This document shows positions 3,867 through 49,580 of a stretch of DNA of 64,000 nucleotides, piece by piece. Source of the stretch: Cyanidioschyzon merolae (lineage: Eukaryota); NCBI GenBank assembly GCA_000091205.1, contig AP006490.2; one strand, 5' to 3'. Made by a program: the position numbers and the translations under genes. Positions within the stretch are counted from its first letter, which is position 1. Each line of letters starts with the position of its first letter. Below the pieces are notes generated by a model that did no database searches, was not told the origin of the DNA, and worked only from the letters and a program-made list of their open reading frames with translations.

Positions 3867-4769
3867 CGACACCGTCAGCCTCGTCCACAACCTGGTTACA
3901 AGTCAATAGCCGCACAAGTCGCAATGTGATCGCCACCACCCCGCTCAATGGAAGCACAGTCAAAAGCAGAATAGCGCTCTGCGAAGACGGCAGGCACTCG
4001 TGCCGAACACTGACATGCGCTGTGCCGTCGTTGCCGCGATCGCCGTGCACTGTGATGGACACGTGTTGCCGGTGCGTCTGCGCCAGTGCACTGCTTTCTT
4101 TTCATGACAACATGGTTATATGGATCATAGATTCCAGTTTGCGGTTTGGATAATGGTAATCAAGAAAGCGTCCGTTATGATACACTTTACTTCCAAGTTC
4201 CATCTCTCATGCTTCCTCTGGGATACACTGGTCATTTCGTACGTTCTATCGTGTGCCAAGTGCCTGTCTTGCTGTACCCGTAATAGCAGATATGAAGCCG
4301 GAGCAGATGCATGACGAAGACAGAGCGGCTTTTGCTATATTACTGAGGGCATCGGAACGAGGAACGCTTGATCTGACACGGAGTCGGCGCTCATAATCAT
4401 TCTAGGAACGAGCAAGTTGTGCTGATAGCCTTACTGCCCGCAGCAGCTCGAGGCGATGGTAGAGGAGTCCACTGCGACCAGGGCGATACCCAGACGCAGC
4501 CAAACCGCCCCTGGTTCCAGAATGAATTGCGTGTCGGACGAGTTGCTGCTCAGGTCTATTCACAGCACTAGGTACTGGGAAGGTCAGGAAGCACTGGTCT
4601 GGCAGACTCGTCCGGCTCGCAGGACACGCCGCCTGGAAGGGACACGATCGACAATTCGGAAACCTGTTCCCTTTTTTAAAGTTTATCGTTGAGAGGGAGA
4701 GAAATTGTTATTTCGTTGCTACCTAGACGCTACTCTCTGTTCTTTGTTCCATATAGTGCGGTCGATACA

Positions 4770-7545
4770 CGCACCTCCATATCTGGGAGGCGTGAGAAAC
4801 GAAGCGCATCTGGCCGTTGAAGGGAAACGTGATACTAAACATGCGCGTGTTATTCTAGCGTAGAAGTTGTATTTGCGTTGAAGTCGTAGCAAAGTATAGT
4901 TTTTCAGTTAAATTGTGTTTCAACCCTCAGCTTAGTGTCTTCAAGTGATTTTCGCGGTTTATAGCAGAAGCGTTCAAGGTGCGTTCTATTTCAAAAAATA
5001 AAAAAATATGGAAAAGGATGTGGAAGATTCTGGAGCACAGGTAGCGCCGGCGGCAAGGAAAAAAAAGATAAAAAATGGCGGAGCAAAGAGGATCAGGAGA
5101 AGACGAAGAAGCTGCACGCGGGCGACAGTACGACGAGATCGTGACGAAAGCCTGTCTCTTTCAACATATCAAGGCTCCCTGCATGCAAAAGTTGCGAGAC
5201 GTCATCAGAAATTGTGTCGATTCATACCCCGGCAGTGTTCGTAACGCTTCTTTAGGACTGATGCATATTCCGAGGGAGAGATATCGCGATGTGACGGACA
5301 TCAGAACAGTTGAGGTTTCGGAAGAGTTTTTCGACAAGACCCTAATTCGTCACCTGATACTTGGCACAGGGGAAACGTCGACGAAAAATGAGCTCGTGCA
5401 TGCCCTCCACGAAAACTTCGCCGAATACGGCTGAAACTGTACTCGGTATCGGGATGACTCGCCTATTTACTGCTACGGAGCGATGAAGTGCCTCACGAAC
5501 CTGTAGAGCCACGTGATCGTGAACCTCAAACGCTTCATGGTACGCTCCGTCTTTGCACTGTACCCGGGACTGTTTCGCAAACGAATATGGGCGATTACCA
5601 ATGGAATCACGAACGATCGACAGGATGAAGATGAGATCGAATTCGTCGACAAGAAGACATCACGCAGAAGAAAGGATGAAGCTTCTGTAATCCGTGCGGC
5701 TATACAAGAGCACCGTGCGGTACTGAGGCTGGCGAATCCAGCAGACAAGATATCAGAGTTGAAAAAAGATACTGAAAGATACGAACGCATCGTCCTGTGG
5801 TATTTCGTATTTCTGGACCAAGAGCTCGAACGCAAGGCAGAGGTGAAGCTGAGTGTAGAGACAAATGAAGCGTGGGAGAGACGGAAGGCTGTCCTAATGG
5901 GGAAGCGCTTCGACGTGGTTCCAATGTGCAATAACAAGTCACATTTTGTGACTATTGACTCCACAGTCCTTCATGGCATCATGAAGGAGATCTGTCCAGA
6001 GTTCGATGCTAGCATGGAGGAGTTCTCCGGTGAAAACCGGGAGACGTACTGGAAGAATATCTTCGATTTCAAACGTCTCAAAGTGAGCAAACAAAAGGTT
6101 TTCACTGGGTTGATCGAAACCGATGGAGTAGCCTCGTGTATACACTATCGGCGGTTGAAGAAAGATCGGCCAGTTCCGCCCTCGGCTGCGCCCGTGACGA
6201 AGGATGAAGAAAACAAAGAGGAGGATCATGTGATGCAGGAGGTGGAGGATTACGATATTGTCGTTGACATGACGAAGCATGAAAAAAAGGAGGCGGCTGG
6301 TCCGGCGACTCAGGAGGTAGAGGATAACGGCTTTATCGTTGGCGCTGCGAAGCATGAAGATGAGAAGGAGGCGGATCTCACGACGCAAGTGGTGGAGAAT
6401 AACGACTTTGTCGTTGGCGCGACGAAGCAGGAAGGTGAGAAGGAGGCGGGTCCTGCGACGCAGCAGGTGCATGAGAAGCGCGTTGTCGTTGGCGCGACGA
6501 AGCATGAAGAAAAGAAGGAGGCGTATCCTGCGACGCAGAAAGTGCAAGATAACGACTTTGTCGTTGGCGCGGACCCCGGTAACACAAATGTCATAACCAT
6601 CGCTGCACCGAAGCGTGCGGAAGATGGTACTGGTGGTAACTTTTGTTAGAGAGACATGCGTCTGTTGAGGTTCTCGAGAGCGAGATACTATTGAGAATCG
6701 GGAATCATGAATGCGAGGAAGAAAATCGAGACGTGGAATGCAGGAATGAAAGATCACCTGGAAGCTTTGAGCGAGGTGACGAGCCGCGGGACGGACTTTG
6801 AAGCTTTTCGGAAATTCATGGAAGTTCGCATTGCTCACTGGGATGCGCTGTGGGAAGAATATACAAAGTCCCGCTGGGCTCGTTTGTGAATGAATTTGTA
6901 TTGTGGTAAGCGGCGGGCGTTCGCGAATTTTTTCAATGAGTTGAGCGCCCTCAAAGAGGATCAAAGTCAAGGGGTCGTAGTAGCGTATGGGGAAGGGCGC
7001 TGGGCGCCCAAGAAAGGGACTATGCCAGCTCCGACGACGAGGGTGTACAAAGAGTGCGCAAGGCGTTTCGTTACAATACCTGTAGACGAGTTCCCAACAT
7101 CGTATACACACCATGAACTGGGATGTACACTTCAGAGAGTGGAGATGGAAAAGTGCCAACGGAGCCCTGAGGAATTTGCAAAGTACGGACCGGTGACGGA
7201 GGAGCAAATGGAAAGGAGAGCGAAAGTGCGAGGATTGCTTGCATTGGTAAGTACAACGAATGACGGCAAGAAACGTATGGAGTTCGTGAACTGTAATTTT
7301 AACGCCGCAATCAGTATAAGCGGATGTGCGGTGCTGGAGGAAAGACCTCGAAAGTCCACAAGAGTGAACTTTGTTGGACAATCGCTCAAAGTAGAATTAT
7401 ATGAGACAAGATTGGAAGCAGTAGTAGGTGGCCGGTCCAATAAGACGGGGAGGCGTCTGCACGTCAGTCGAAGACTTTTCGTCCAGGGCGGGCTTCTCGC
7501 CACTACTGTACACCGCCGGCGACAACGTTTTTCTTTTGAAAGACG
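4770..7545 (+). mobile_element. TnpB/Fanzor-like element, copy A; degenerate, one frame 5075-7573 broken by five in-frame stops
   Basis: This copy aligns along its whole length with the element at 46680-49580 (left leader, coding region, and about 70 nt beyond the stop). The track ORFs 5075..5434, 5513..6649, 6707..6889 and 6890..7573 all lie in the same reading frame. They are separated only by stop codons: TGA at 5432-5434, TAG at 5504-5506, TAG at 6647-6649, TGA at 6692-6694 and TGA at 6887-6889. There are no frameshifts. RuvC-I is present ([11 protein letters not shown]). A TSxxC-like segment is present ([13 protein letters not shown]). The RuvC-III consensus is degraded, reading [11 protein letters not shown] where copy B has [11 protein letters not shown]. 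Confidence 0.7.
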
Positions 7546-7573
7546 TTTGCTGTTGCCGGTGACGGCTGCGTAA
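5075..7573 (+). pseudogene. TnpB/Fanzor-like RuvC nuclease pseudogene (copy A)
   Basis: Five premature stops in a single frame. Three lie where copy B has CAG, CGA and CGT. The RuvC-III Asp is replaced (RD to CN). Confidence 0.65.
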
Positions 7574-7637: not shown

Positions 7638-9431
<1,794 letters not shown>

Positions 9432-10003: not shown

Positions 10004-12101
10004 GGTATCGCCCAGCTGCCACGAACGATGGAGGCTAGCGCGTCCTCGTTTTGGGTAGCGCGCGTGCGCTGCGCGGCCGCGTCGACATGCGACACGCTCC
10101 TGCCACGAGTTGATCAAAAGCCTCGCTCTAGGTACCTCAAAAAGCTTTTGCGGACCGCAAGACGTGCAGCGACGCAGCGCCTGTAATCCAAGATCGATAG
10201 GCTGGAAGTCTTCAAGGAGAAGCTGAAGCCGGCAGCATGCGGCCGGTCAAAGAAAGGCCCGGAGGCGTCTCTAAGTGCGTATTCATGTACATTCAATAAC
10301 GTACCATAAACGTCAAAGGAAGGGAAGACCTTTCCATATTGTCGAAAGTTTACCGCCTAGGCGGAAGGTCCGCGAGCCGGACGAGTGTGCTGCGCTAGTG
10401 CTTTATCCTTCCTCCAGTGGCAGGTGCTGTGGCGAGACCTGCACAGCTCGTCTGCAACGCATTTCATTCTGGGACTAGACACAGTAAAGCCGCATATGGG
10501 CGTCGCCCTGGTCGCAGTGGACTCTTAGCATATCGCTTCGCGCTGTAGCAGGCAGTACGTCTGCATGTACAGCTTGCAGGCTCCCAGAATGATTACGTAC
10601 CCCGACCCCGTGTCGCATGAACCAAGCATCGAACCGACGCCCGCAGTGGTACGGAAAAGCCGTTCTGTCTCCGTGCAGCACCTGATTCAGCGGTACAAGC
10701 GCCAAGGCGGGTGTTCACGGCAGGCAGTCGGCGCACGATAGAACGTACGAAACGACCAGTATACTCGGGAGGAAGTATGGGTAATGGAACTTGATGGTAG
10801 GTGCTTCATCGTGGACGCTTTCCCGAGAGCCATGATACATTCCGAATTCTGGGATCCGTGGTCAATGTAAACGTTTTGCCATCTGAAGCAAATGGTGTTG
10901 ATTGTTCTTCCTGAGCCTACCATACCGCGCGGTACCAGGGCGCTGCACTGTAGATGCCTGAGTTTGGCTGGTGCCTCGCGAGTGGACGCGTGTAAGGTCG
11001 CTCGCTTCGCTGGTTGCCGCTCGGCATGGACTGCTACAGACGTTGCGGCAAATGGATCGATCCGGTGAAGAGCAGCGATGATCGTTGGGGATTTTGAAGA
11101 CACATCTATGATTAGAATCGTAAGGAGATAAAGCATCTGAAAAATGGCTGGGAGTATGCTCCATTCATCGATCGTGTGTGGTGGCAGGTATTTTGTGCAG
11201 CGAGGTGAGCGCGCGTCATCAGCCTAGAACTTGCACCGGGGAGCGTTCAAGTCCGATGCATTCTGAACAGAGCCGGGGGCTTGTCACCTCCGTCGGTCGA
11301 GTTATTGATGAGCACGATACGCGTAAATGCGCTGCGAATCGCCTTCGGATCCTTGCTTGACCTTCGCAGCTGCCACCAATATCCGCTCTAAGGCAAGTCC
11401 GACGCTGGCATTCCAGAAAAGCAATGCGAGCTTATTGGGCAGCGATCCTGGCCCCGCGTATCTCCTCGCGCTATGCCTGTTAGCAATCCTAGACTGGCAT
11501 TCCAGCAAAGTTTCATACATTCACTGAGTACGAGTTGGGGGCCTCGCGCATCGGTGCCTTCCCGGCATCGTAACCACTGCCACGAGAACGACAGCTGCCT
11601 TGCGCCGATGCCCGCGACGAACGTCGAAGCTGTTGCGTGTCTGTCGGAAGCTTATATTGATGTATCCAGCGCTGTGGCAAGTGTCTGGGCTAGGCTCGAA
11701 GTTCGTGGGGTCACAGAAGCGGGTGCAAATGCCAGGAGCCGTCACTGCCGTTTCTCAGCGGAGCGACTCGAACCTGCTTCCGCAAATAGCGCCCATTGCC
11801 TAGCACGGCACATCGCTACGCATGCAATCGACTGGTGAAGATGGGCCTCTCGACAGGCTATGTGCTCGCTGACGATGATTTCAGAGGCCTCGAAAAATTA
11901 GCGTTGAAGGACGACAGGGAAGCATACTTGCCTAGGGCAAGCAGCATACTGTGGATAGGGACGGAGCAACTGAATCCGTTTCTCTGGTGCATCCCGGAGA
12001 CAAGCAGGTAGGCAACCAGCCAGGCGTTTAGGTAGGTATTTAAGCAGACATGCAGAGACACATACACTCTGATGCACTCGTATCCGATTCAAATGGTACG
12101 A

Positions 12102-12868
12102 ATCCACTAACTTGGACGAAGGCAATAAAGTTTGATTCTCTTATCACTGTCATAAATACTAGCCTTCATGGACGATTTATGCGACTGCTTCGATTCACGC
12201 GCTCCTAGCTCCGGCTTTGAGTACGCTGGCCTCCCTGCCTGCCTATCCAACTCCGTTGCAAATAGTCACAGCATGTTGGTGGCAGCGTTCAATTACCGAT
12301 GCTGATGCTTCCAGATGTTTTCGACGCATTTCACGCACAGGCAGTACCCAGCATCTGCGCTTCGCTTGCCATTGTGATCTTCATTTCGTTCAGCGTCGGT
12401 GCGCCGGTCGAAGCGACGACGCTCGGCCTTGGTCAGGTGTTCCCGGACGTCGACAATGCTCCGTCTCCCGAGATCCACGCTGTGGCACATGAAGGTTCGC
12501 TTCATGATCCGGGATATGCGCATCACTGGGGCAGAGGACGCTGCTCGATGCCCCGCCTCGTTACCTAACTCGGTGCATCACCGACATAGGATTACCGGCT
12601 TCATCTGAGCGACCCGTCGATGGTTTGGCGTCGCCATTCTACGGAGGATTTCTGGAACACGATGATTTGCATGACGGAACGAGTACCGGACGGCAGTCCA
12701 GGTTGGGTACGAAATTTCCAGAGATTCCGATCCTTCTGGGCATTGCTGGAGCACAGCGGATATGCCGTCGCGAGTCTACACGAATGCTGCAACGACTCAA
12801 GTGTGGTCCTTGTACCCTTTGCCACGGAAACCGAAGAGACGGCATCCTCTTGGTGCATATCCTGTGAC
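12102..12868. repeat. Dispersed direct repeat, copy 1 (about 766 bp, non-coding)
   Basis: About 99% identical to 15808-16572. It begins at atccactaacttggacgaaggcaataaag and ends at ggtgcatatcctgtg. The internal ORFs are duplicated and have no recognisable protein features. Confidence 0.9.
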
Positions 12869-13669: not shown

Positions 13670-14914
13670 ATGGGACTCTCGACGATAGATGCCGACGTTC
13701 TTCGGTCGTACACGGAGGTTGTCGAAGCAGCAGCGCCGGCAAGCGAACGAAAGGCCGGATTTCTGGTTCAACAGCACGGGGCGCTCGGTGATGGCGGAGA
13801 CGCTTCGCAACCCGCTGGTGGCGCCACTGAGGCTGGCGCTGCCAACAGCGAGGGCGACGCAGGCTCCAACGTTGACATGTTTTATTTCGAGCACGCGCTA
13901 GCGACAGCGATATCCAGCCAGCAGCAACACAGCGCTGGCGGCGGTGGCGGTGGCGGTGGCGCCCCAGACCCGTCTACGGTGCATACCACTGGCTCTGCGA
14001 CCACAACTGAAGGCGTGTCAAACCTCACCAGGCTTGTAGTCGAGGAACAAAAGACACTCGATCTTTTCCACAAACTCAAGTTTAACTGGCTCGAACTGCA
14101 GACAAAACAGTACTTCCTCGAGGTTCTTCTAGGCTGCCCCAAGGGCGTGACACCGAACGATCTTTGTCCATCGGACGCCGCCATTGCCGAACTTGAAATA
14201 TCATCTGCTCAAGCGAAGCAGGAGCTCAAAAAAATCAAGCAGCAGACGAAAAATTTGCACGAACAAATGGAATCACTCTGCACAGAGCTGGCTCGAGCCC
14301 ACGGGATATACCTAGCGTCGTTCAACGAATGCAGAACGGCCGTTGAGGATCTCTGCGCTCGCGTTCAGGAGCGAGCGTATCGAGATCAACTTGTCGAGCG
14401 TGATGCAGAATTAGCGTCACTGCGGCAGCAGGAAGCTGAGATGCTCGCCAAAAAAGCCAAGCTCGAGTGGGAGACGCGACCCCTCGAACAGAGCATCGAT
14501 GCATTGCGAGAAGAAATCGCAGCTACCGAGACGCGACTTGAAAGTGGTAATTCAGCGAGCGAAAAAGAGCCAGACGCCGCATTGCGAGCGCGCTACCAGG
14601 CCATGGTTGCGTGGTATCAAGCCATGATCCCATTGCTCGAGTCTATATCTGGCATTCGAATCGAGCGCTTTGAGACTGATCGCCTAGTGATCAGCATGGA
14701 ACACGCTGTTTCCGACCAAAAACAACAGGCCGTGCTCGATCTCATTCCCGGTTCGTGCTTGATATCTCGGATCACGTTGGAACCGCCACCGTCGCCAACA
14801 AGTGGACTCGACGCCGCCGAAATAGAGACACTTCTTCGCCGTGCGAACGAAACGAACGACATGGGCTGGTTGATTCGCACCCTTCAACAACGACTCTACT
14901 TGTGCGCCCGCTAG
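13670..14914 (+). CDS. Hypothetical coiled-coil protein (Gly-rich N-terminus, long heptad-rich central region)
   Basis: 414-aa ORF. The coiled-coil-like segment reads LEISSAQAKQELKKIKQQTKNLHEQMESLCTELA...LRQQEAEMLAKKAKLEWETRPLEQSIDALREEIAATETRLES. No diagnostic family motif. Confidence 0.45.
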   Translation: MGLSTIDADVLRSYTEVVEAAAPASERKAGFLVQQHGALGDGGDASQPAGGATEAGAANSEGDAGSNVDMFYFEHALATAISSQQQHSAGGGGGGGGAPDPSTVHTTGSATTTEGVSNLTRLVVEEQKTLDLFHKLKFNWLELQTKQYFLEVLLGCPKGVTPNDLCPSDAAIAELEISSAQAKQELKKIKQQTKNLHEQMESLCTELARAHGIYLASFNECRTAVEDLCARVQERAYRDQLVERDAELASLRQQEAEMLAKKAKLEWETRPLEQSIDALREEIAATETRLESGNSASEKEPDAALRARYQAMVAWYQAMIPLLESISGIRIERFETDRLVISMEHAVSDQKQQAVLDLIPGSCLISRITLEPPPSPTSGLDAAEIETLLRRANETNDMGWLIRTLQQRLYLCAR

Positions 14915-15453: not shown

Positions 15454-15807
15454 GAAGCAGCGCCAAAACCAGTGTGCGCGCTCTCTCCCTGTTGAGGACG
15501 CTTTGGGTACGCGGTGCTTGACACACCCTCCAGGGAGCGATGCGCCGCGGCTCTGCTGAAACTTGAGTACGCTCCGTAGCCGACCGTGTGCCTGAGCCTA
15601 AACGGCCACGTTAAGTGCTTCCCCTTGTGAGAGAGTAGCCGTTGTCGGCAACTCAGAACGCCCTAGAGCCACACGAGACTAGCCAGTGGGGTTCACGAAC
15701 GTCGTCGAGACGGTTGCGGCGGCGTTGCCGGTGACGCGTGCAGCCTTGCCGCGGAGCGCACCTGCGGCGTAACACACACCGATGTGAGCAAGTGCCATAA
15801 AACGGAT

Positions 15808-16572
15808 CCACTAACTTGGACGAAGGCAATAAAGTTTGATTCTCTTATCACTGTCATAAATACTAGCCTTCATGGACGATTTATGCGACTGCTTCGATTC
15901 ACGCGCTCCTAGCTCCGGCTTTGAGTACGCTGGCCTCCCTGCCTGCCTATCCAACTCCGTTGCAAATAGTCACAGCATGTTGGTGGCAGCGTTCAATTAC
16001 CGATGCTGATGCTTCCAGATGTTTTCGACGCATTTCACGCACAGGCAGTACCCAGCATCTGCGCTTCGCTTGCCATTGTGATCTTCATTTCGTTCAGCGT
16101 CGGTGCGCCGGTCGAAACGATGACGCTCGGCCTTGGTCAGGTGTTCCCGGACGTCGACAATGCTCCGTCTCCCGAGATCCACGCTGTGGCACATGAAGGT
16201 TCGCTTCATGATCCGGGATATGCGCATCACTGGGGCAGAGGACGCTGCTCGATGCCCCGCCTCGTTACCTAACTCGGTGCATCACCGACATAGGATTACC
16301 GGCTTCATCTGAGCGACCCGTCGATGGTTTGGCGTTGCCATTCTACGGAGGATTTCTGGAACACGATGATTTGCATGACGGAACGAGTACCGGACGGCAG
16401 TCCAGGTTGGGTACGAAATTTCCAGAGATTCCGATCCTTCTGGGCATTGCTGGAGCACAGCGGATATGCCGTCGCGAGTCTACGCGAATGCTGCAACGAC
16501 TCAAGTGTGGTCCTTGTACCCTTTGCCACGGAAACCGAAGAGACGGCATCCTCTTGGTGCATATCCTGTGGC
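15808..16572. repeat. Dispersed direct repeat, copy 2
   Basis: See copy 1. Same orientation, 3.7 kb downstream. The two copies bracket the coiled-coil gene and the V-ATPase G gene. Confidence 0.9.
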
Positions 16573-24758: not shown

Positions 24759-25721
24759 CTATCCGATTGCTCTTCGAGAGCGAGCCGGGTCCACAGATGG
24801 ATACGTGGCCGTCCAGGTCCAGTCTGCGGCAGCATCGATTGCGGTTCCGTCGGTATCCAGTTTGTCTCGCGTTCCTGCCGTCATTCGATCCGCGATCTTG
24901 CAGCGGCTGGGTGCGTCTTCAAGCGATGGCGCTGGGGCCCGCCACGCCTGCTCGATCGCGTCACACACGCCTTCAGCCGTCGACTCGCACCGTACACCGC
25001 CATGATGCAGGAAATGTGCATTGATCATCTTTAGGGATGCCGCCGCCCGCATCCACTCCACAATGGGTTCCCAGTAGCCGTCAACGTCAAATAGCACGAT
25101 GGGTTTATTGTGGAATCCGAGCTGACGCCATGACAAGACCTCGGCGAGCTCCTCGAGGGTCCCGAGGCCCCCGGGCAGCGCCACGAACGCGTCTGAATCG
25201 AGGTAGAGGCCACGTTTGCGCTCCGCCATGTTTGTGACGGTGCGCACGGATGGCAGTTCCGGGTGACAGTTATGGACACGAAAGATATCGAGTATGACGG
25301 CATCGACGCGACCACCAACGGACAGCGCACCTTCGGTGAGTTTCCCCATGAGGCCAAAGCGGCCGCCACCGTTGCGCTGCGACCAACCGCGCTTCGCAAT
25401 CGCGACACCTAGCTCGAATGCTGCCTGTTGGTAGTGTTCAGGGGCATTCGCAGACGACGACGCGTAACACGTTACAACGGGAGTGTCTCTGGGGGCGTCG
25501 GGGTTGCCCGCCATGACGAAAAAAAAAGATCGCCAAGCGCGAGCCTCTTTTGTTCCCGTAAAGCGAGCACTATCGACGCCGATACCTGTCGCTTGGGCCC
25601 AGAACGGCTTTTCGAAAAGCCAGTGTATACATGCGGCCTTTCGGACCGTCCAAACACAGAAGCTTTCGCACTTGGAAGCGCGTTCAGGGGTACAGGCGTA
25701 CGGGAGCGTGCGCGCGCGCAT
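24759..25721 (-). CDS. LOG family protein (cytokinin riboside 5'-monophosphate phosphoribohydrolase / lysine-decarboxylase-like), with an N-terminal extension
   Basis: GGGRFGLMGKL...GGRVDAVILD...ALPGGLGTLEELAEVLSWRQLGFHNKPIVLFDVDGYW matches the LOG (TIGR00730) PGGxGTxxE signature. Confidence 0.85.
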   Translation of the reverse strand: MRARTLPYACTPERASKCESFCVWTVRKAACIHWLFEKPFWAQATGIGVDSARFTGTKEARAWRSFFFVMAGNPDAPRDTPVVTCYASSSANAPEHYQQAAFELGVAIAKRGWSQRNGGGRFGLMGKLTEGALSVGGRVDAVILDIFRVHNCHPELPSVRTVTNMAERKRGLYLDSDAFVALPGGLGTLEELAEVLSWRQLGFHNKPIVLFDVDGYWEPIVEWMRAAASLKMINAHFLHHGGVRCESTAEGVCDAIEQAWRAPAPSLEDAPSRCKIADRMTAGTRDKLDTDGTAIDAAADWTWTATYPSVDPARSRRAIG

Positions 25722-29254: not shown

Positions 29255-29740
29255 GCGTCCACGATCGTAGTCGTCTTTTAACTTTATTCTATTCCACGTT
29301 CAAGTGAGTGTAAACAGATGCTTTTCGCAGTTTATAGCGGATACATACAAAGTGCGTTCAAGTTCATAAACATATCCTCATCTTGCGGACCATCGGGCGA
29401 AGAATAGCAATTGACGAAGAAGAAGACGGGAGATACACGAGAAAAGGTATTCGCCTAACGGGACATGGCTGAGATTGTAGTGGCACAATGGGCACGAGTT
29501 CTGGCAATCCTTGCAATGATCAGTTGCGCCAAAGGCGAAAAACGCATGGAGTTCGTGAAGTGAGACTTCAACGCCGCCATCAATAGCAGACGATGTGCGA
29601 TACTGAAGACGAGACCAGAGGAGCTGACGCAATCATACCTCATGGGGCAGTCTCTCAAGCTCGAAGTCTAAAAGGAGAATCTGGAACCTATAGCGAGGGG
29701 CCGGTCAAACAAGGCTGGCAGACGTGTGCGCGTGGGTATT
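29255..29740 (+). mobile_element. Internally deleted (MITE-like) derivative of the TnpB/Fanzor-like element, copy C
   Basis: About 200 bp homologous to the 5' leader and N-terminal coding start of copies A and B (ttcaagtga...cgcagtttatagc.ga...gcgttcaag). This joins directly to about 270 bp of the 3' end: KRMEFVK*DFNAAINSRRCAILKTRPEELTQSYLMGQSLKLEV*KENLEPIARGRSNKAGRRVRV, compared with [66 protein letters not shown] in copy B. Confidence 0.7.
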
Positions 29741-42693: not shown

Positions 42694-43305
42694 CTATGTT
42701 CACCACTTAAGTTGGCTGCAGGCGTGCAACCAGGGGATTTTGCCTGCTTTTCACGGTTTGCTCGGGAGCAGATAACAGCGCGAATGCCGAAGCGAACAAC
42801 GTTACGTCAGCGCAGCAAACCCGTTTCGCCACAATATCGTGTACATGAATATCCACCCGCAGACGTGTCTCAGCCTTTTCTTACAGGGTTCTGGTATCGG
42901 TTTCAGTTTCTCCATATACACTCCGACGCTGTGAGGCTGCCCAACAAAGTTAGCTTGCCGCAGCGCTGCGTGCCTCGCATTCAGCACAAGCATCTCCTGA
43001 TATTGATACCAGCGTTGAGGTCTCGGTTCATGGACTCCATGCGTTTGTTGCCGCTGGTTGATCTCACCAATGATAGGAGACCAGAACTCGTGTACGCTGT
43101 GCCATTGGGTGCTCTGTCAGCTCTTCGTGCTGATTTGTCGACGAAATGCTCCGCTGGCCTCGCTCCAACTCAACGTCCTAGGGTGTATATTCCAGCTCAT
43201 CCCTTCGATTTTTCGAAAATGAACGCATTTGCTTATAGCCTGAGATGAGAACCTTCCCGCATCGAGCAGCACATGCGGAATAAAGACCAAATGTGCCCCG
43301 GTTGG

Positions 43306-46679: not shown

Positions 46680-49580
46680 TGCGCGTGCACGCGCACCTGG
46701 CAGATCCGGCGGGCACGAGACACGACGCTCTGGTCGCTCCTGAGGGGAACAGTGATCCTGATCATTGGCGTGCTATTCTACTGTAAAAGTTGTATTCGCG
46801 TTGAGGTCGTAGCAAAGTATAGGTTTTCTGTTCCATCCTATTCCGACCCTCAATTGAGTATATTCAAGTGTTTTTTCGAAGTAAATAACAGAAGCGTTCA
46901 AAGAGCGTTCGTTTTCATAAAAAATTAAAAGGAAAGGCATGGAAATGGAAGTGGAGGATCCCGGAGGGCCGATATCGCCGGCTCTCGGAAAAGAAGGATA
47001 AACATGGCGGAGCAAAGAGGAACAGGAAGTGATGAAGAATCAAAAGGGGGCGAGGTTCTACGTCGAAGGCGGCAAGAAAGGCAACTGTACGGCGATATTG
47101 TAGTGAAAGCCTGTGTTCTTAAATATATCAAGGATCCGTAGAAGGAAAAGTTGCCGGACGCCATCAAAAACCGTCTCGAGTCGTACTCCATGAGTATGAT
47201 AAAGGCTTCTTCAGGACCGACGCATTTGGTGAGGGAGATGTATCGCTACGTGACGAACATGGAAACGGTCGAGATTCCGGACGAGTTTTTCGACAACACA
47301 TTTTTTCGTCACTTGATGCTTGGCACAGGGGAAGAGCGGAAGGATATAAGAGCTAGTGCATGCCCCTCACGAACAACATCCCTTTTGCAGGTTCGAGGGT
47401 AATCGAAACAAGGGGGACTGGGGTATTTACGACTATGGGGCGATGAAGTACATCACGAACCTGAAGAACCATTTGAAAACGAACCTCGAACGTTTCATGA
47501 TACGCGCCGTGTTTGCACTCTACCGGGGCCTGTCTCGCAAAGGAATATGGGCGATTATCAATGGCATCACGAACGATCGAAACTATGGAAATGAGGTCGA
47601 ATTCGTTGACAAGAAGGAGTCAAACCAGAGCACGAATGAGAATTCCGTCATCCGTGCGGTTATCGAAGAGCATCGTGCGGTACTGGGGCTGGCGAATCCA
47701 ACAGACAAGATATCAGAGTTGAAAAAAGATAGGGAAAGATACGATCGCCTCGTTCTGCGCTATTTTGTGTTTCTGGACCGAGAGCTCGAACGCAAAGCGG
47801 AGATGAAGCTGAGTGAAGAGACAAATGAAGAGTGGGAGAGACGGAAGGCTTTCCTAATGGGTAAGCGCTTCGACGTGGTTCCAATGTGCAAGATCAAGTC
47901 ACATTTTATGACTATCGACTCCGGCGTCCTTTACGGCATCATGAGGGAGATCTGTCCGGAGTTCGATGTAAGGAAGACAGAGTTCCCCGGTGAAAACCGT
48001 GAGACGTACTGGAAGAATATCTTCGATTTCAAACGTCGCAAAGTCAGCAAACAAAAGGTATTCACTGGGTTGATCGAAACCGAAAGAGTAGCCTTGTGTA
48101 TACACTATCGGAGGTTGAAGAAAGATCGGCCAGTCCCTCCCTCGGCTGCGTCCGTCACGAAAAATGAAGAAAAGGAGGAGGCTGGTCCTGCGAAGCAGGA
48201 GGTAGAGGATAACGACCTTGTCGTTCACGCGGCGAAGAATGAAGAAAAGAAGGAGGCGGGTCCTGCGACGCAGGAAGTGGAGGGTAACGACCTTGTCGTT
48301 GACGTGACGAAGGATGAAGAAAAGAAGGATGCGGATCCTGCGACGCAGGAGGTAGAGAATAACAGCTTCATCGTTAACGCGACGAAGCATGAAGAAAAGA
48401 AGGAGGCGGGTCCTGCGATGCAGGAGGTGCATGAGAAGGACCTTCTCGTTGGCGCGGCGAAGGATGAAGATGAGAAGGATGCGGATCCTGCGACGCAGGA
48501 GGTAGAGAATAACGACTTTATGGTTGACGTGACGAAGCATGAAGAAAATGAGGATGCGGGTCCTGCGACCCAGAAAGTGCAAGATAACGACTTTGTCGTT
48601 GGCGCGGACCCTGGGAATACGAATATCATCACCATTGCAGCACCGAAGCGTGCGGAAGATCGTACTGACGGCAACTTGCGTCAGAAAGACATGCGTCTTT
48701 TGAGGTTCTCGAGAGCGAGATACTATCGAGAATCGGGAATCATGAATGCGAGGAAGAAAATCGAGACTTGGAATTCAGGAATGAAAGAGCACCTGGAAGC
48801 TGTGAGCGAGGTAACGAGCCGAGGAGCGGACTTTGAAGCTTTTCGGAAATTCATGGAAGTTCGTGTTGCGCATTGGGATGCTCTGTGGGAGGAGTATACC
48901 AAGCCCCGGTGGGCTCGACTGCGTATGAATCTATACGGTGGGAGGCAGCGCGCATTCCCAAATTTTTTCAATCAGTTGAGTGCCCTGAAGGAGGATGAAA
49001 GTCAGAGGCTCGTAGTAGCGTACGCAGCAGGGCGCTGGAAGACCCAAAAAGGGACTACTCCGGCCCCAACGACAAGAACGTTCAAGGAGTGCGCAAGGCG
49101 TTTCGTTACGATACCTGTAGATGAGTTCCGAACGTCGTATACGCACCATGAACTGGGGTGTACACTCCAGAGGGTGGAGATGGAAAAGTGCCAGCGGAGC
49201 CCTGAGGACACAGCAAAGCACGGACTGCTGACGGAGGAGCAAATGGAAAGGATGGCAAAAGTTCGTGGACTGCTTGCATTAGTGAGTACAACCAGTGATG
49301 GTAAGAAACGTATGGAATTCGTGAACCGTGACTTTAACGCCGCTATCAATATACGGAAATGTGCGGTGCTGGAGAAGAGACCTCCAGAATTGACAGGAGA
49401 GAATTTCGTTGGACAACCTCTCAAAGTCGAACTATATGAGAAAAAGTTGGAGGCAGTTGTAGGCGGCCGGTCGAGAAAGGCTGGGAGGCGTCTGCACGTC
49501 AGGTAAAGAGTTTTGTCTAAGGCGCCGGTCGTCTCAACTGTACACTGGCACCATCGCCGGTGCATTCGACAGATGGTGTC
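46680..49580 (+). mobile_element. TnpB/Fanzor-like element, copy B; most intact copy
   Basis: The left leader is homologous to copy A from about 46680. An N-terminal ORF (ATG about 46994 to TAA 47402) contains one in-frame TAG and then a 1-nt insertion relative to copy A. That insertion shifts into the main 716-aa ORF 47356..49506 (GTG start as listed). A conserved non-coding tail of about 70 nt follows the stop. Confidence 0.75.
47356..49506 (+). CDS. TnpB/Fanzor-like RuvC-fold nuclease (IS605 OrfB superfamily), core ORF of copy B
   Basis: RuvC-I: [18 protein letters not shown]. TSxxC-like: [15 protein letters not shown]. RuvC-III hallmark: [21 protein letters not shown] (RDxNAAxNI). There are six to seven 26-aa tandem repeat units ([22 protein letters not shown]) immediately N-terminal to RuvC-I. 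Confidence 0.75.

Follow-up and report, generated by a model that had tools for sequence, protein, structure and literature searches.

Five premature stop codons without a frameshift in a Fanzor1 element of the red alga Cyanidioschyzon merolae

Results

A single reading frame interrupted by stop codons

The window analyzed here is a stretch of 64,000 nucleotides of Cyanidioschyzon merolae 10D DNA (contig AP006490.2, assembly GCA_000091205.1), in which a repetitive element is found in several copies alongside host genes. The copy located furthest upstream, termed copy A, contains a reading frame that spans positions 5075–7573. Translation of this single frame yields 833 codons with five internal stops (three TGA and two TAG) and not one frameshift. 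Including the terminal stop, the frame contains six stop codons, compared with 37 and 46 in the other two sense frames and 44 ± 6 in shuffled sequences; owing to this large deficit, we regard it as a real degenerate ORF. An initial reading of the sequence alone had described four ORFs in phase and split only by stops, which the one-frame translation confirms. Its description of copy A as carrying five premature stops and no indels holds for the stops and for the absence of frameshifts, but not for indels as such: close to the N-terminus, copy A departs from copy B (a second long copy in the window) and most of the family by an in-frame difference of ~30 nt, and a 75-bp tandem repeat counts five units rather than six.

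Copy A was set against 45 further loci of the family, taken from related metagenome populations, and against three orthologues of its own (L013, L014, and L023). The features of the copy A reading frame are as follows, with the RuvC motifs assigned by homology.

5075–7486, plus strand: degenerate Fanzor1 reading frame of copy A, 804 codons long when taken to the native stop; five premature stops, frameshift-free
5432–5434, plus strand: premature stop 1, TGA; TTC in 36 of the 45 other loci, two transversions; present in all three orthologues
5504–5506, plus strand: premature stop 2, TAG; from family AAG by an A>T transversion; also in the orthologues
6196–6571, plus strand: tandem repeat array of five 75-bp units, a 25-aa acidic/lysine-rich repeat directly upstream of RuvC-I; unit number differs among copies
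6572–6586, plus strand: predicted RuvC-I motif DPGNT within GADPGNTN; catalytic Asp kept; aligns to DPGR of solved Fanzor1 proteins
6647–6649, plus strand: premature stop 3, TAG; from family CAG by C>T outside CpG; also in the orthologues
6692–6694, plus strand: premature stop 4, TGA; from family CGA by C>T within CpG; also in the orthologues
6887–6889, plus strand: premature stop 5, TGA; CGA in the three orthologues, CGA or CGT in the family
7085–7099, plus strand: predicted RuvC-II motif DEFPT (DEFRT in the family); catalytic Glu kept
7289–7318, plus strand: predicted RuvC-III motif, a degraded 10-residue stretch; catalytic Asp codon (7295–7297) changed to Asn in copy A and the three orthologues
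7484–7486, plus strand: native stop position; CAG in copy A (lost), TAG or TAA in 26 of 46 loci, TAG in L013 and L023

The three orthologues derive from independent metagenome assemblies, are 98–99% identical to copy A, and show no indel over 3100 bp. All of them share four of the five premature stops, which are therefore not sequencing errors. The remaining one, stop 5, reads CGA in every orthologue and hence is recent, having arisen in the 10D lineage. As the native stop is lost in copy A, positions 7487–7573 represent a stop-loss extension into the element 3′ end and the flank.

Assignment to Fanzor1

By homology, the copy A ORF is a gene for Fanzor1, a eukaryotic TnpB-like protein belonging to a family of RNA-guided RuvC nucleases, within what is very probably the multicopy element CMe-1A. 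A profile built from the family and its distant relatives matches Fanzor1 chains only in the PDB, namely 9cf0 from Parasitella (E = 1.1e-17), 8gkh from Spizellomyces (E = 4.8e-9), and 9cer from Guillardia (E = 2.2e-4), with alignments that take in the DPG, DEFRTS, and NRD motifs. Distant relatives retrieved from a representative-library search were needed in the profile to reach these structures; querying the PDB with one sequence alone, or with a shallow profile, gave no match. Pfam scans of the copy B protein and its relatives likewise returned no significant family, and the only precomputed label is DUF8286, marked as weak. Structure prediction was carried out on the copy B ORF. An earlier AlphaFold model from a 15-sequence alignment reached a pLDDT of 35 and was unusable, whereas the RuvC half of the later model is predicted with pLDDT about 85–90. 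The model adopts a fold of the TnpB/Cas12 type in which the RuvC domain is split, and Foldseek places SpuFz, PpFz, and GtFz as best matches (E = 6e-9 to 3e-6), with TnpB, Fanzor2, and Cas12 ranking next. In the same model, the segment encoded by the 75-bp repeats is predicted to be disordered.

Homology to the solved proteins SpuFz1 (8GKH), PpFz1 (9CF0), and GtFz1 (9CER) spans the WED/REC part through RuvC-I, -II, and -III. Compared with these, the algal family is only 11–19% identical in structural alignments, carries the variable 25-aa tandem repeat insert directly before RuvC-I, and is devoid of the CxxC cysteine pairs of the zinc-finger (TNB) region. A search for such a zinc-finger insert found no CxxC pairs after DEFRTS in the family, where the sequence includes VRGLLALVS; more distant relatives retain only “LLWC” of the cysteine motif, and the best hit of the Pfam TNB model lies in a single relative (E = 0.0023). 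The cysteine motif thus appears degenerate in the algal clade, making zinc binding less credible and leaving the homology unaffected. Both the family consensus and copy B have the RuvC triad Asp/Glu/Asp, and in copy A the third Asp is replaced by Asn. With this catalytic residue gone, copy A is, as far as its sequence can tell, a dead member of the Fanzor1 family. An Rfam scan of the window identified no RNA family. We considered whether constraint on synonymous sites at the ORF 3′ end might point to a guide RNA overlapping it, and dropped the idea for want of a clear signal: over the last 150 nt, diversity at third positions (0.224) is not clearly below that of the rest of the ORF.

Element anatomy and relation to CMe-1A

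Beyond the copy A ORF, the following parts and copies of the element are found in the window.

4100–4790, plus strand: 5′ module of long-form elements, carried by about a quarter of family loci
4767–5074, plus strand: upstream non-coding region, common to copy A, copy B, and most family members (blastn, family coverage)
7487–7556, plus strand: element 3′ end; family homology stops at ~7520 or ~7545–7560; presumed location of a putative guide-RNA scaffold
10303–10882, minus strand: solo inverted 5′ module, 70% identical to 4104–4689
29492–29734, plus strand: fragment C, limited to the C-terminal 82 codons; its RuvC-III motif is interrupted by an in-frame TGA
42895–43282, minus strand: fragment D, a C-terminal remnant over three reading frames, hence with frameshifts
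46689–49552, plus strand: copy B, a short-form element with a long ORF (47356–49506) and an intact D/E/D triad

Family coverage of copy A begins either at ~4071–4104, in long-form loci, or at ~4767–4800, in short-form loci such as copy B. By blastn, positions 4767–6569 of copy A align to 46689–48529 of copy B with 78% identity, and the copy B protein matches copy A by tblastn as one segment in one frame. The 5′ end of copy B is also broken, by a TAG at 47139–47141 and a frameshift around 47340–47400. The inverted repeat of 586 bp formed by 4104–4689 and 10303–10882 was considered as the terminal inverted repeats (TIRs) of a composite element with ATP synthase beta as its cargo; we rejected this in favor of a 5′ module and a solo copy of it, which fits better. 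The solo copy is probably an independent insertion of the TE-N2_CMe type rather than a TIR.

CMe-1A has been described in C. merolae as a family of about 150 copies, ~80% identical to their consensus, ~3 kb long, and lacking TIRs, whose 5′ part also occurs in a short element of its own, TE-N2_CMe (Bao & Jurka 2013, Mobile DNA 4:12; PMC3627910). The same study reports that intact copies exist in the genome and that the coding capacity is unusually long-lived for so old a family. Our assignment is a match to these described features, not an alignment to the Repbase consensus: species, copy number, ~80% identity, ~3 kb length, absence of TIRs, and the shared 5′ module all agree. The existence of two 5′ forms and of a solo module in our data fits that description, and the module at 4100–4790 probably corresponds to the TE-N2_CMe-like 5′ part. 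Bao & Jurka give no figures on selection, mutation spectrum, or the rates of stops and frameshifts, which the present analysis supplies.

Purifying selection on shared variation and neutrality of private changes

A MAFFT majority nucleotide consensus turned out to be frame-inconsistent in the 5′ half and was replaced by pairwise projection of each locus onto the codon frame of copy A. The resulting consensus of 46 loci is an 802-codon ORF without a stop, and none of the 46 loci is itself fully intact. Between copies A and B, dN is 0.116 and dS 0.429 (dN/dS 0.27), and direct differences distribute over codon positions 1:2:3 as 101:78:154. Variants shared by at least five copies show a similar preference for third positions (127:91:272), with 53% being synonymous versus a neutral expectation of 24%. 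In the RuvC half, the ratio of diversity at position 3 to that at positions 1/2 amounts to 2.1–2.9.

Substitutions confined to single copies behave differently from shared variants. We polarized these “private” changes against the majority consensus, which consists mostly of metagenomic relatives and not of other 10D copies, so that some sites are perhaps mis-polarized. The 76 private changes of copy A fall evenly on the three codon positions (25:24:27), with 18% synonymous versus the neutral expectation of 24%; family-wide, 2451 private substitutions are spread as 846:835:770, of which 21% are synonymous. Differences among the copy A orthologues, counted by hand, also cover all three positions (about 18:16:22). 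Shared variation therefore shows purifying selection, and private changes of single copies are neutral. Continued purifying selection on the stop-containing ORF of copy A was not found, be it in its private changes, the differences among orthologues, or the lost catalytic Asp. Recent inactivation after a long period of purifying selection, one of three explanations offered by the sequence-only reading, finds support in the A–B dN/dS, the synonymous excess of shared variants, and the neutral private changes of copy A.

A flat mutation spectrum

The same reading had proposed deamination of a silenced, methylated transposon, in which cytosine methylation or a RIP-like process would generate C-to-T stops faster than indels accumulate. 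The last three stops indeed lie opposite CAG, CGA, and CGT in copy B, as had been stated, and a C-to-T origin stands for the stops at 6647, 6692, and 6887, derived from CAG or CGA; two of them lie at CpG, and the youngest is a CGA>TGA change. It does not stand for 5432 (TTC to TGA, two transversions) and 5504 (AAG to TAG). Moreover, the genetic code allows single transitions to create stops only by C>T or G>A, rendering the three C>T stops an ascertainment effect, and their CAG, CGA, or CGT origin is hence uninformative on mutational bias.

Substitutions other than the stops provide a direct view of the spectrum. The private changes of copy A comprise 37 transitions and 39 transversions, with 18 C>T plus G>A against 19 A>G plus T>C. 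Family-wide, the ratio of transitions to transversions is 1105:1346 (about 1:1.2), and per-site rates of the four transitions are virtually equal (C>T 0.61, G>A 0.57, A>G 0.60, T>C 0.61). CpG sites are not hypermutable, taking 28% of C/G changes while making up 29% of C/G sites, and observed/expected CpG ratios in copies A (1.19) and B (1.21) are close to that of host genes (1.16). We judged TpA, at 0.61–0.66 in the copies versus 0.57 in host genes, as not raised. In line with this, a bisulfite re-analysis of C. merolae detected nuclear 5mC at levels not above organelle background, transposons being marked by H3K27me3 instead (bioRxiv 10.1101/2022.10.24.513474). The proposal thus fails the test set for it beforehand: the spectrum is balanced, CpG has no effect, and frameshifts are common in other family members, leaving deamination-driven decay extremely improbable. 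RIP or methyl-CpG decay of silenced repeats likewise yields copies with several nonsense codons and no frameshifts; the likeness is superficial, as CMe-1A copies show neither C>T/G>A excess, nor CpG/CpA depletion, nor TpA gain.

Regular termination in host genes

An unbroken frame of 2.5 kb might also be retained if the organism tolerated stop codons by readthrough or recoding, such that full-length copy A protein would still be made and its frame kept under selection. In-frame stops in an eRF1 gene of the window could be read as a hint in this direction, and the sequence-only reading had named its eRF1 observation as a reason for testing it. This gene contains three such stops and no frameshift, and is the sole host-type gene with internal stops. 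An intact eRF1 (BAM80981.1) is encoded on another chromosome, with canonical TASNIKS, YYCDSRF (YxCxxxF), and GGQ motifs; alterations of the stop-recognition motifs were not found in this functional protein. The window gene is, judging from this comparison, a pseudogene duplicate of BAM80981.1 in the course of decay, and the hint falls away with it. Fourteen host ORFs in the window are uninterrupted, with TAA, TAG, and TGA all used at their normal ends, and no in-frame stop in a conserved functional gene was found among them; the three proteins checked (RPS4, FKBP, and a LOG-like protein) are identical to GenBank C. merolae 10D entries. A kinetoplastid origin of the DNA, with a Blastocrithidia-type code, was also considered and rejected, RPS4 being nearer to animal and fungal than to trypanosomatid sequences and the organism being C. 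merolae. On copy A itself, the neutral changes on its own lineage, the Asp-to-Asn change of RuvC-III in copy A and orthologues, and the polymorphism of stop 5 between populations further argue against a protein still in use. General tolerance of stop codons is consequently the explanation to which we give the least credence, practically none.

Rates of stops and frameshifts

To relate stops to frameshifts, frameshifts were counted in pairwise nucleotide alignments, with nearby compensating gaps merged, and the N-terminal 60 nt and the 75-bp array left out. Across the 45 other loci, 2375 private substitutions are accompanied by 130 stops and 81 frameshift events. At these rates, copy A is predicted to contain 4.2 stops and 2.6 frameshifts, compared with five and none observed, and the probability of no frameshift is 0.075. 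Nine of 46 loci are frameshift-free, where a Poisson expectation gives 9.3, and the probability of at least one frameshift-free locus among the nine most-decayed ones is 0.42. The family thus shows about one frameshift for every 30 substitutions. A tally in orthologous pairs serves as an independent check and yields roughly 20 small indels per 560 substitutions (~1:28). The view that stops without any frameshift are not what unconstrained decay usually produces is therefore not borne out; the state of copy A is the outcome expected of ordinary neutral decay in this family.

These figures also bear on the idea that the frame was kept up by gene conversion from intact paralogues, or by an unusually low indel rate in a thermoacidophile. 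The low probability of a frameshift-free copy A, the low indel-to-substitution ratio, and the eRF1 pseudogene, which has also gathered stops and no frameshift, would be compatible with it. In addition, nine 10D-specific differences lie within 99 bp (7258–7356), resembling a conversion tract. However, a single-rate Poisson process accounts for the observed number of frameshift-free loci with no need for an extra force, conversion should also remove stops, of which four have persisted since before the population split, and the clustered differences do not return the RuvC-III motif to the consensus. We consider this explanation improbable as an account of copy A as a whole, though somewhat less so than deamination or stop tolerance; given P(0) = 0.075, some weak additional force that preserves the frame, such as gene conversion by intact copies, may nevertheless have acted at copy A.

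Discussion

Copy A is very probably a dead, fixed CMe-1A insertion that was inactivated recently after long selection and has since undergone ordinary decay. Among the three explanations raised from sequence alone, inactivation after selection thus stands, and deamination and readthrough do not. Most of the ~18% divergence between copies A and B would be older than either insertion, having built up in active source lineages in which the Fanzor ORF was under purifying selection. Selection on the source ORF explains why the divergence lies mostly at synonymous sites with the frame kept intact, and we infer that source copies needed a working Fanzor protein. After insertion, copy A would have evolved neutrally, acquiring about 4% private substitutions with a flat spectrum, and this phase would have produced the five nonsense codons as well as the loss of the RuvC-III catalytic Asp and of the native stop. 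Four of the stops predate the split of strain 10D from the metagenome populations, and one is specific to 10D. Small indels arise about 30-fold less often than substitutions, which is why copy A has so far escaped a frameshift; a frameshift-free state is expected for roughly one-fifth of family loci.

As a discovery, copy A is of small value. The family was published in 2013 together with the long persistence of its coding capacity, and the rates measured here for substitutions, nonsense changes, and indels account for the pattern seen in this copy. A note of caution may be of wider use: stops derived from CAG, CGA, or TGG cannot serve as evidence of deamination bias, since the code holds no other transition route to a stop. 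Fanzor1 is the sole gene of CMe-1A, which has no transposase and no terminal repeats, and it has been under purifying selection (dN/dS ~0.27) that is strongest in the RuvC half. This combination suggests that the nuclease itself might drive spread or retention of the element in a eukaryote, for instance through RNA-guided cleavage combined with homology-directed copying, a reading that we regard as unlikely at present. If true, occasional gene conversion between copies would help old copies such as copy A to stay in frame. For C. merolae, our results amount to a clean negative, a red alga with neither a deamination or RIP-like signature nor stop-codon tolerance. For CMe-1A, they describe the family in numbers, with selection during diversification, neutral decay of each insertion, and about one small indel per 30 substitutions.

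Copy A carries one degenerate reading frame

Direct translation of copy A, a degenerate Fanzor1 reading frame at 5075-7573 (+), yields 833 codons in one frame with five internal stops, and confirms the sequence-only reading that its four ORF pieces lie in phase. This frame contains 6 stops including the terminal one; the other two sense frames contain 37 and 46, and shuffled sequences 44 ± 6. The protein of copy B, a second family member at 46689-49552 (+) with 78-82% identity to copy A, matches it as one tblastn segment in a single frame. The copy A frame is a genuine degenerate ORF, interrupted at the following sites.

Premature stops of copy A and the family codon at each position
5432, +, TGA; family codon TTC
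5504, +, TAG; family codon AAG
6647, +, TAG; family codon CAG
6692, +, TGA; family codon CGA
6887, +, TGA; family codon CGA/CGT

The last three align to CAG, CGA and CGT in copy B, as described earlier. A metagenome scan of related Cyanidioschyzon populations recovered 80 family loci, which together with copies A and B collapsed at 97% identity into 46 distinct loci. Three of these (L013, L014 and L023) are copy A orthologues, 98-99% identical including the flanks, with zero indels across 3100 bp and four of the five stops in common; at position 6887 all three read CGA. Recurrence in three orthologues marks the stops as genuine: four are older than the split of the populations, and the fifth arose in the 10D lineage. 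The RuvC-III Asp is replaced by Asn in copy A and every orthologue. Around this motif, 9 of the ~20 10D-specific differences from the orthologues fall within 99 bp (7258-7356), which may reflect gene conversion from another copy of the family or locally clustered mutation. The native ORF stop lies at 7484-7486, with TAG or TAA in 26 of the 46 loci (TAG in L013 and L023). Copy A has CAG there, so the final 87 nt of the frame as originally delimited are a stop-loss extension.

The family is the Fanzor1 element CMe-1A

All three RuvC motifs typical of TnpB-like proteins occur in the ORF ([15 protein letters not shown]; [10 protein letters not shown]). A Pfam search and single-sequence PDB searches with the ORF gave no match, and an exhaustive profile search collected >2000 relatives, typically 600-700 aa long. 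When a profile including some distant relatives was compared with the PDB, Fanzor1 structures were the sole matches (E-values 1e-17 for Parasitella, 5e-9 for Spizellomyces and 2e-4 for Guillardia), in alignments spanning all three catalytic motifs. An AlphaFold model built from the relatives' alignment is predicted confidently in its RuvC half, and its structural matches point to the same Fanzor1 proteins as best, followed by TnpB, Fanzor2 and Cas12. Solved Fanzor1 and TnpB proteins have the CxxC pairs of a zinc-finger/TNB insert after DEFRTS, whereas the C. merolae Fanzor1 clade is without them; family-wide (window 7085-7250), the sequence after DEFRTS reads SYTHHELGC...EKCQ...VRGLLALVS, and distant relatives retain only 'LLWC'.

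CMe-1A has been described as a C. merolae Fanzor1 family of ~150 copies that are ~3 kb long and ~80% identical to their consensus; the element lacks terminal inverted repeats and has its 5' 635 bp in common with the separate element TE-N2_CMe, and its persistent coding capacity was remarked as unusual (Bao & Jurka 2013, PMC3627910). The anatomy of the window copies agrees with this description, and the element is transposase-less. The long form, to which copy A belongs, begins near 4100 and the short form, to which copy B belongs, near 4770-4800; family homology ends on the 3' side at about 7520-7560. The window also contains two short remnants.

Fragments of the family
29492-29734, +, fragment C, short remnant
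42895-43282, -, fragment D, short remnant, frameshifted

Copy A and the mitochondrial ATP synthase beta gene (7641-9431) are enclosed by a 586-bp inverted repeat of 70% identity (4104-4689, +; 10303-10882, -). We rejected these arms as terminal inverted repeats, and interpret 4104-4689 as the 5' module of copy A and 10303-10882 as a solo TE-N2_CMe-like element, independent of that copy. Directly upstream of RuvC-I, the ORF contains a 75-bp tandem repeat encoding 25 acidic/lysine-rich residues (6196-6571 in copy A, 5 units; 48157-48606 in copy B, 6 units), a site that varies in length by 147-297 bp in other loci. The segment is predicted to be disordered, and each unit terminates in 'NDxVV', the strand before the catalytic Asp. 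Elsewhere, a perfect 300-bp direct repeat (12098-12397 and 15802-16101, 100% identity, 3.7 kb apart) flanks a Sos7-like ORF at 13670-14914.

Shared variants are constrained and private changes are neutral

All loci were projected onto the copy A codon frame, where their majority consensus is an 802-codon ORF with zero stops. Variants shared by at least five loci are distributed 127:91:272 over the codon positions and are 53% synonymous, compared with 24% expected from random mutation, and thus reflect purifying selection. Copies A and B differ directly at 17.9% of sites (codon positions 101:78:154), within the 15-20% estimated beforehand, with dN 0.116 and dS 0.429 (dN/dS 0.27); constraint is greatest in the RuvC half. 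Private substitutions, found in no more than two loci, are neutral, both family-wide (n=2451; 846:835:770; 21% synonymous) and in copy A (n=76; 25:24:27; 18% synonymous). Differences among the copy A orthologues likewise cover all codon positions (~18:16:22, hand count).

Deamination of a methylated transposon had been proposed as the origin of the stops, and three of the five are indeed C>T changes, two of them at CpG; the other two arose via transversions, one with two changes. The only single transitions that yield stops are C>T (in CAA, CAG and CGA) and G>A (in TGG), so such stops are uninformative on mutational bias. The private spectrum is flat: family-wide, transitions and transversions number 1105:1346, with per-site rates of 0.61 for C>T, 0.57 for G>A, 0.60 for A>G and 0.61 for T>C (transversions 0.28 to 0.44), and in copy A 18 C>T plus G>A changes oppose 19 A>G plus T>C. 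CpG accounts for 28% of C/G changes and 29% of C/G sites; for the observed/expected CpG ratio, the copies give 1.19-1.21 and host genes 1.16. A bisulfite re-analysis of C. merolae found nuclear 5mC not above organelle background, with transposons carrying H3K27me3 instead (bioRxiv 10.1101/2022.10.24.513474). A balanced spectrum, no CpG bias, no reported nuclear 5mC and frameshifts elsewhere in the family match the conditions named beforehand as refuting deamination, and we reject it.

Frameshift-free copies are expected

Stops without any frameshift had been considered unusual for decay. Outside the 75-bp repeat array and the first 60 nt, which align poorly, 2375 private substitutions in the 45 other loci are accompanied by 130 stops within the frame and a net 81 frameshift events; orthologous pairs give a similar independent estimate (~20 small indels per 560 substitutions, own tally). 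For the 76 private substitutions of copy A, this predicts 4.2 stops (5 seen) and 2.6 frameshifts (0 seen; P(0) = 0.075). Nine of the 46 loci are frameshift-free, with 1-5 stops apiece, where a one-rate Poisson model gives 9.3, and the chance of at least one such locus among the nine most decayed is 0.42. Frameshifts occur in copy B, in fragment D and in 37 of the 46 loci (1-6 each). Within the family distribution copy A is unremarkable, and it was singled out post hoc. A GGGG run aligned to 5856-5860 shows a recurrent -1 frameshift in nine of the 46 loci, which could reflect homopolymer slippage, common ancestry or an assembly artefact.

Termination is canonical in the host

A general tolerance of stop readthrough, by which copy A would stay translatable, is likewise rejected. 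Host ORFs in the window are unbroken and terminate normally, using all three stop codons; the RPS4, FKBP and LOG-like proteins are identical to annotated C. merolae 10D proteins, encoded on a chromosome of 739,753 bp. The intact, annotated eRF1, which maps to another chromosome (BAM80981.1), keeps TASNIKS, YxCxxxF and GGQ in canonical form, and with the RuvC-III Asn a readthrough product would be catalytically dead anyway. The eRF1 gene in the window (40100-38727, -) is 98% identical to BAM80981.1 (418/426 aa), has TASNIKS altered to TAPNIKS, and contains three in-frame stops and no frameshift.

Stops of the window eRF1
N-terminus, -, Gln to stop
'VVDIS*GGEV', -, Tyr to TAG
'LDTG*YCYG', -, Lys to TAA

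Metagenome relatives have an intact version of this duplicate (P0355) or one that ends exactly at the TAA (P0351, P0353 and P0360), which marks it as a young, polymorphic pseudogene. The window eRF1 is a decaying duplicate, with no hint of altered termination; three stops among so few changes are a candidate mild excess. The LOG/lysine-decarboxylase-like gene (24759-25721, -) clusters at 90% identity with BAM82255.1, a paralogue of 320 aa encoded on a third chromosome (1,232,258 bp). This pair and the eRF1 duplicate jointly suggest that inter-chromosomal duplications involve parts of the region.

Copy A as a dead insertion

Copy A is an inserted Fanzor1 element of a known family and is now dead. 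Its divergence from copy B would mostly have built up in active source lineages while purifying selection acted on them, which explains how the frame could stay intact at 18% divergence; ~4% neutral decay after insertion would then have produced the five stops and the loss of the catalytic residue and the terminator. Frameshifts are lacking because indels are ~30 times rarer than substitutions. Among the explanations first offered, that of a recent inactivation preceded by long purifying selection is borne out by constrained shared variants, a dN/dS of 0.27 between copies A and B, and neutral copy A-private changes. The finding is nothing new in kind, and the family itself is already published; the proliferation of a transposase-less Fanzor1, and selection on its nuclease gene, is a family-level question that stands apart from copy A.
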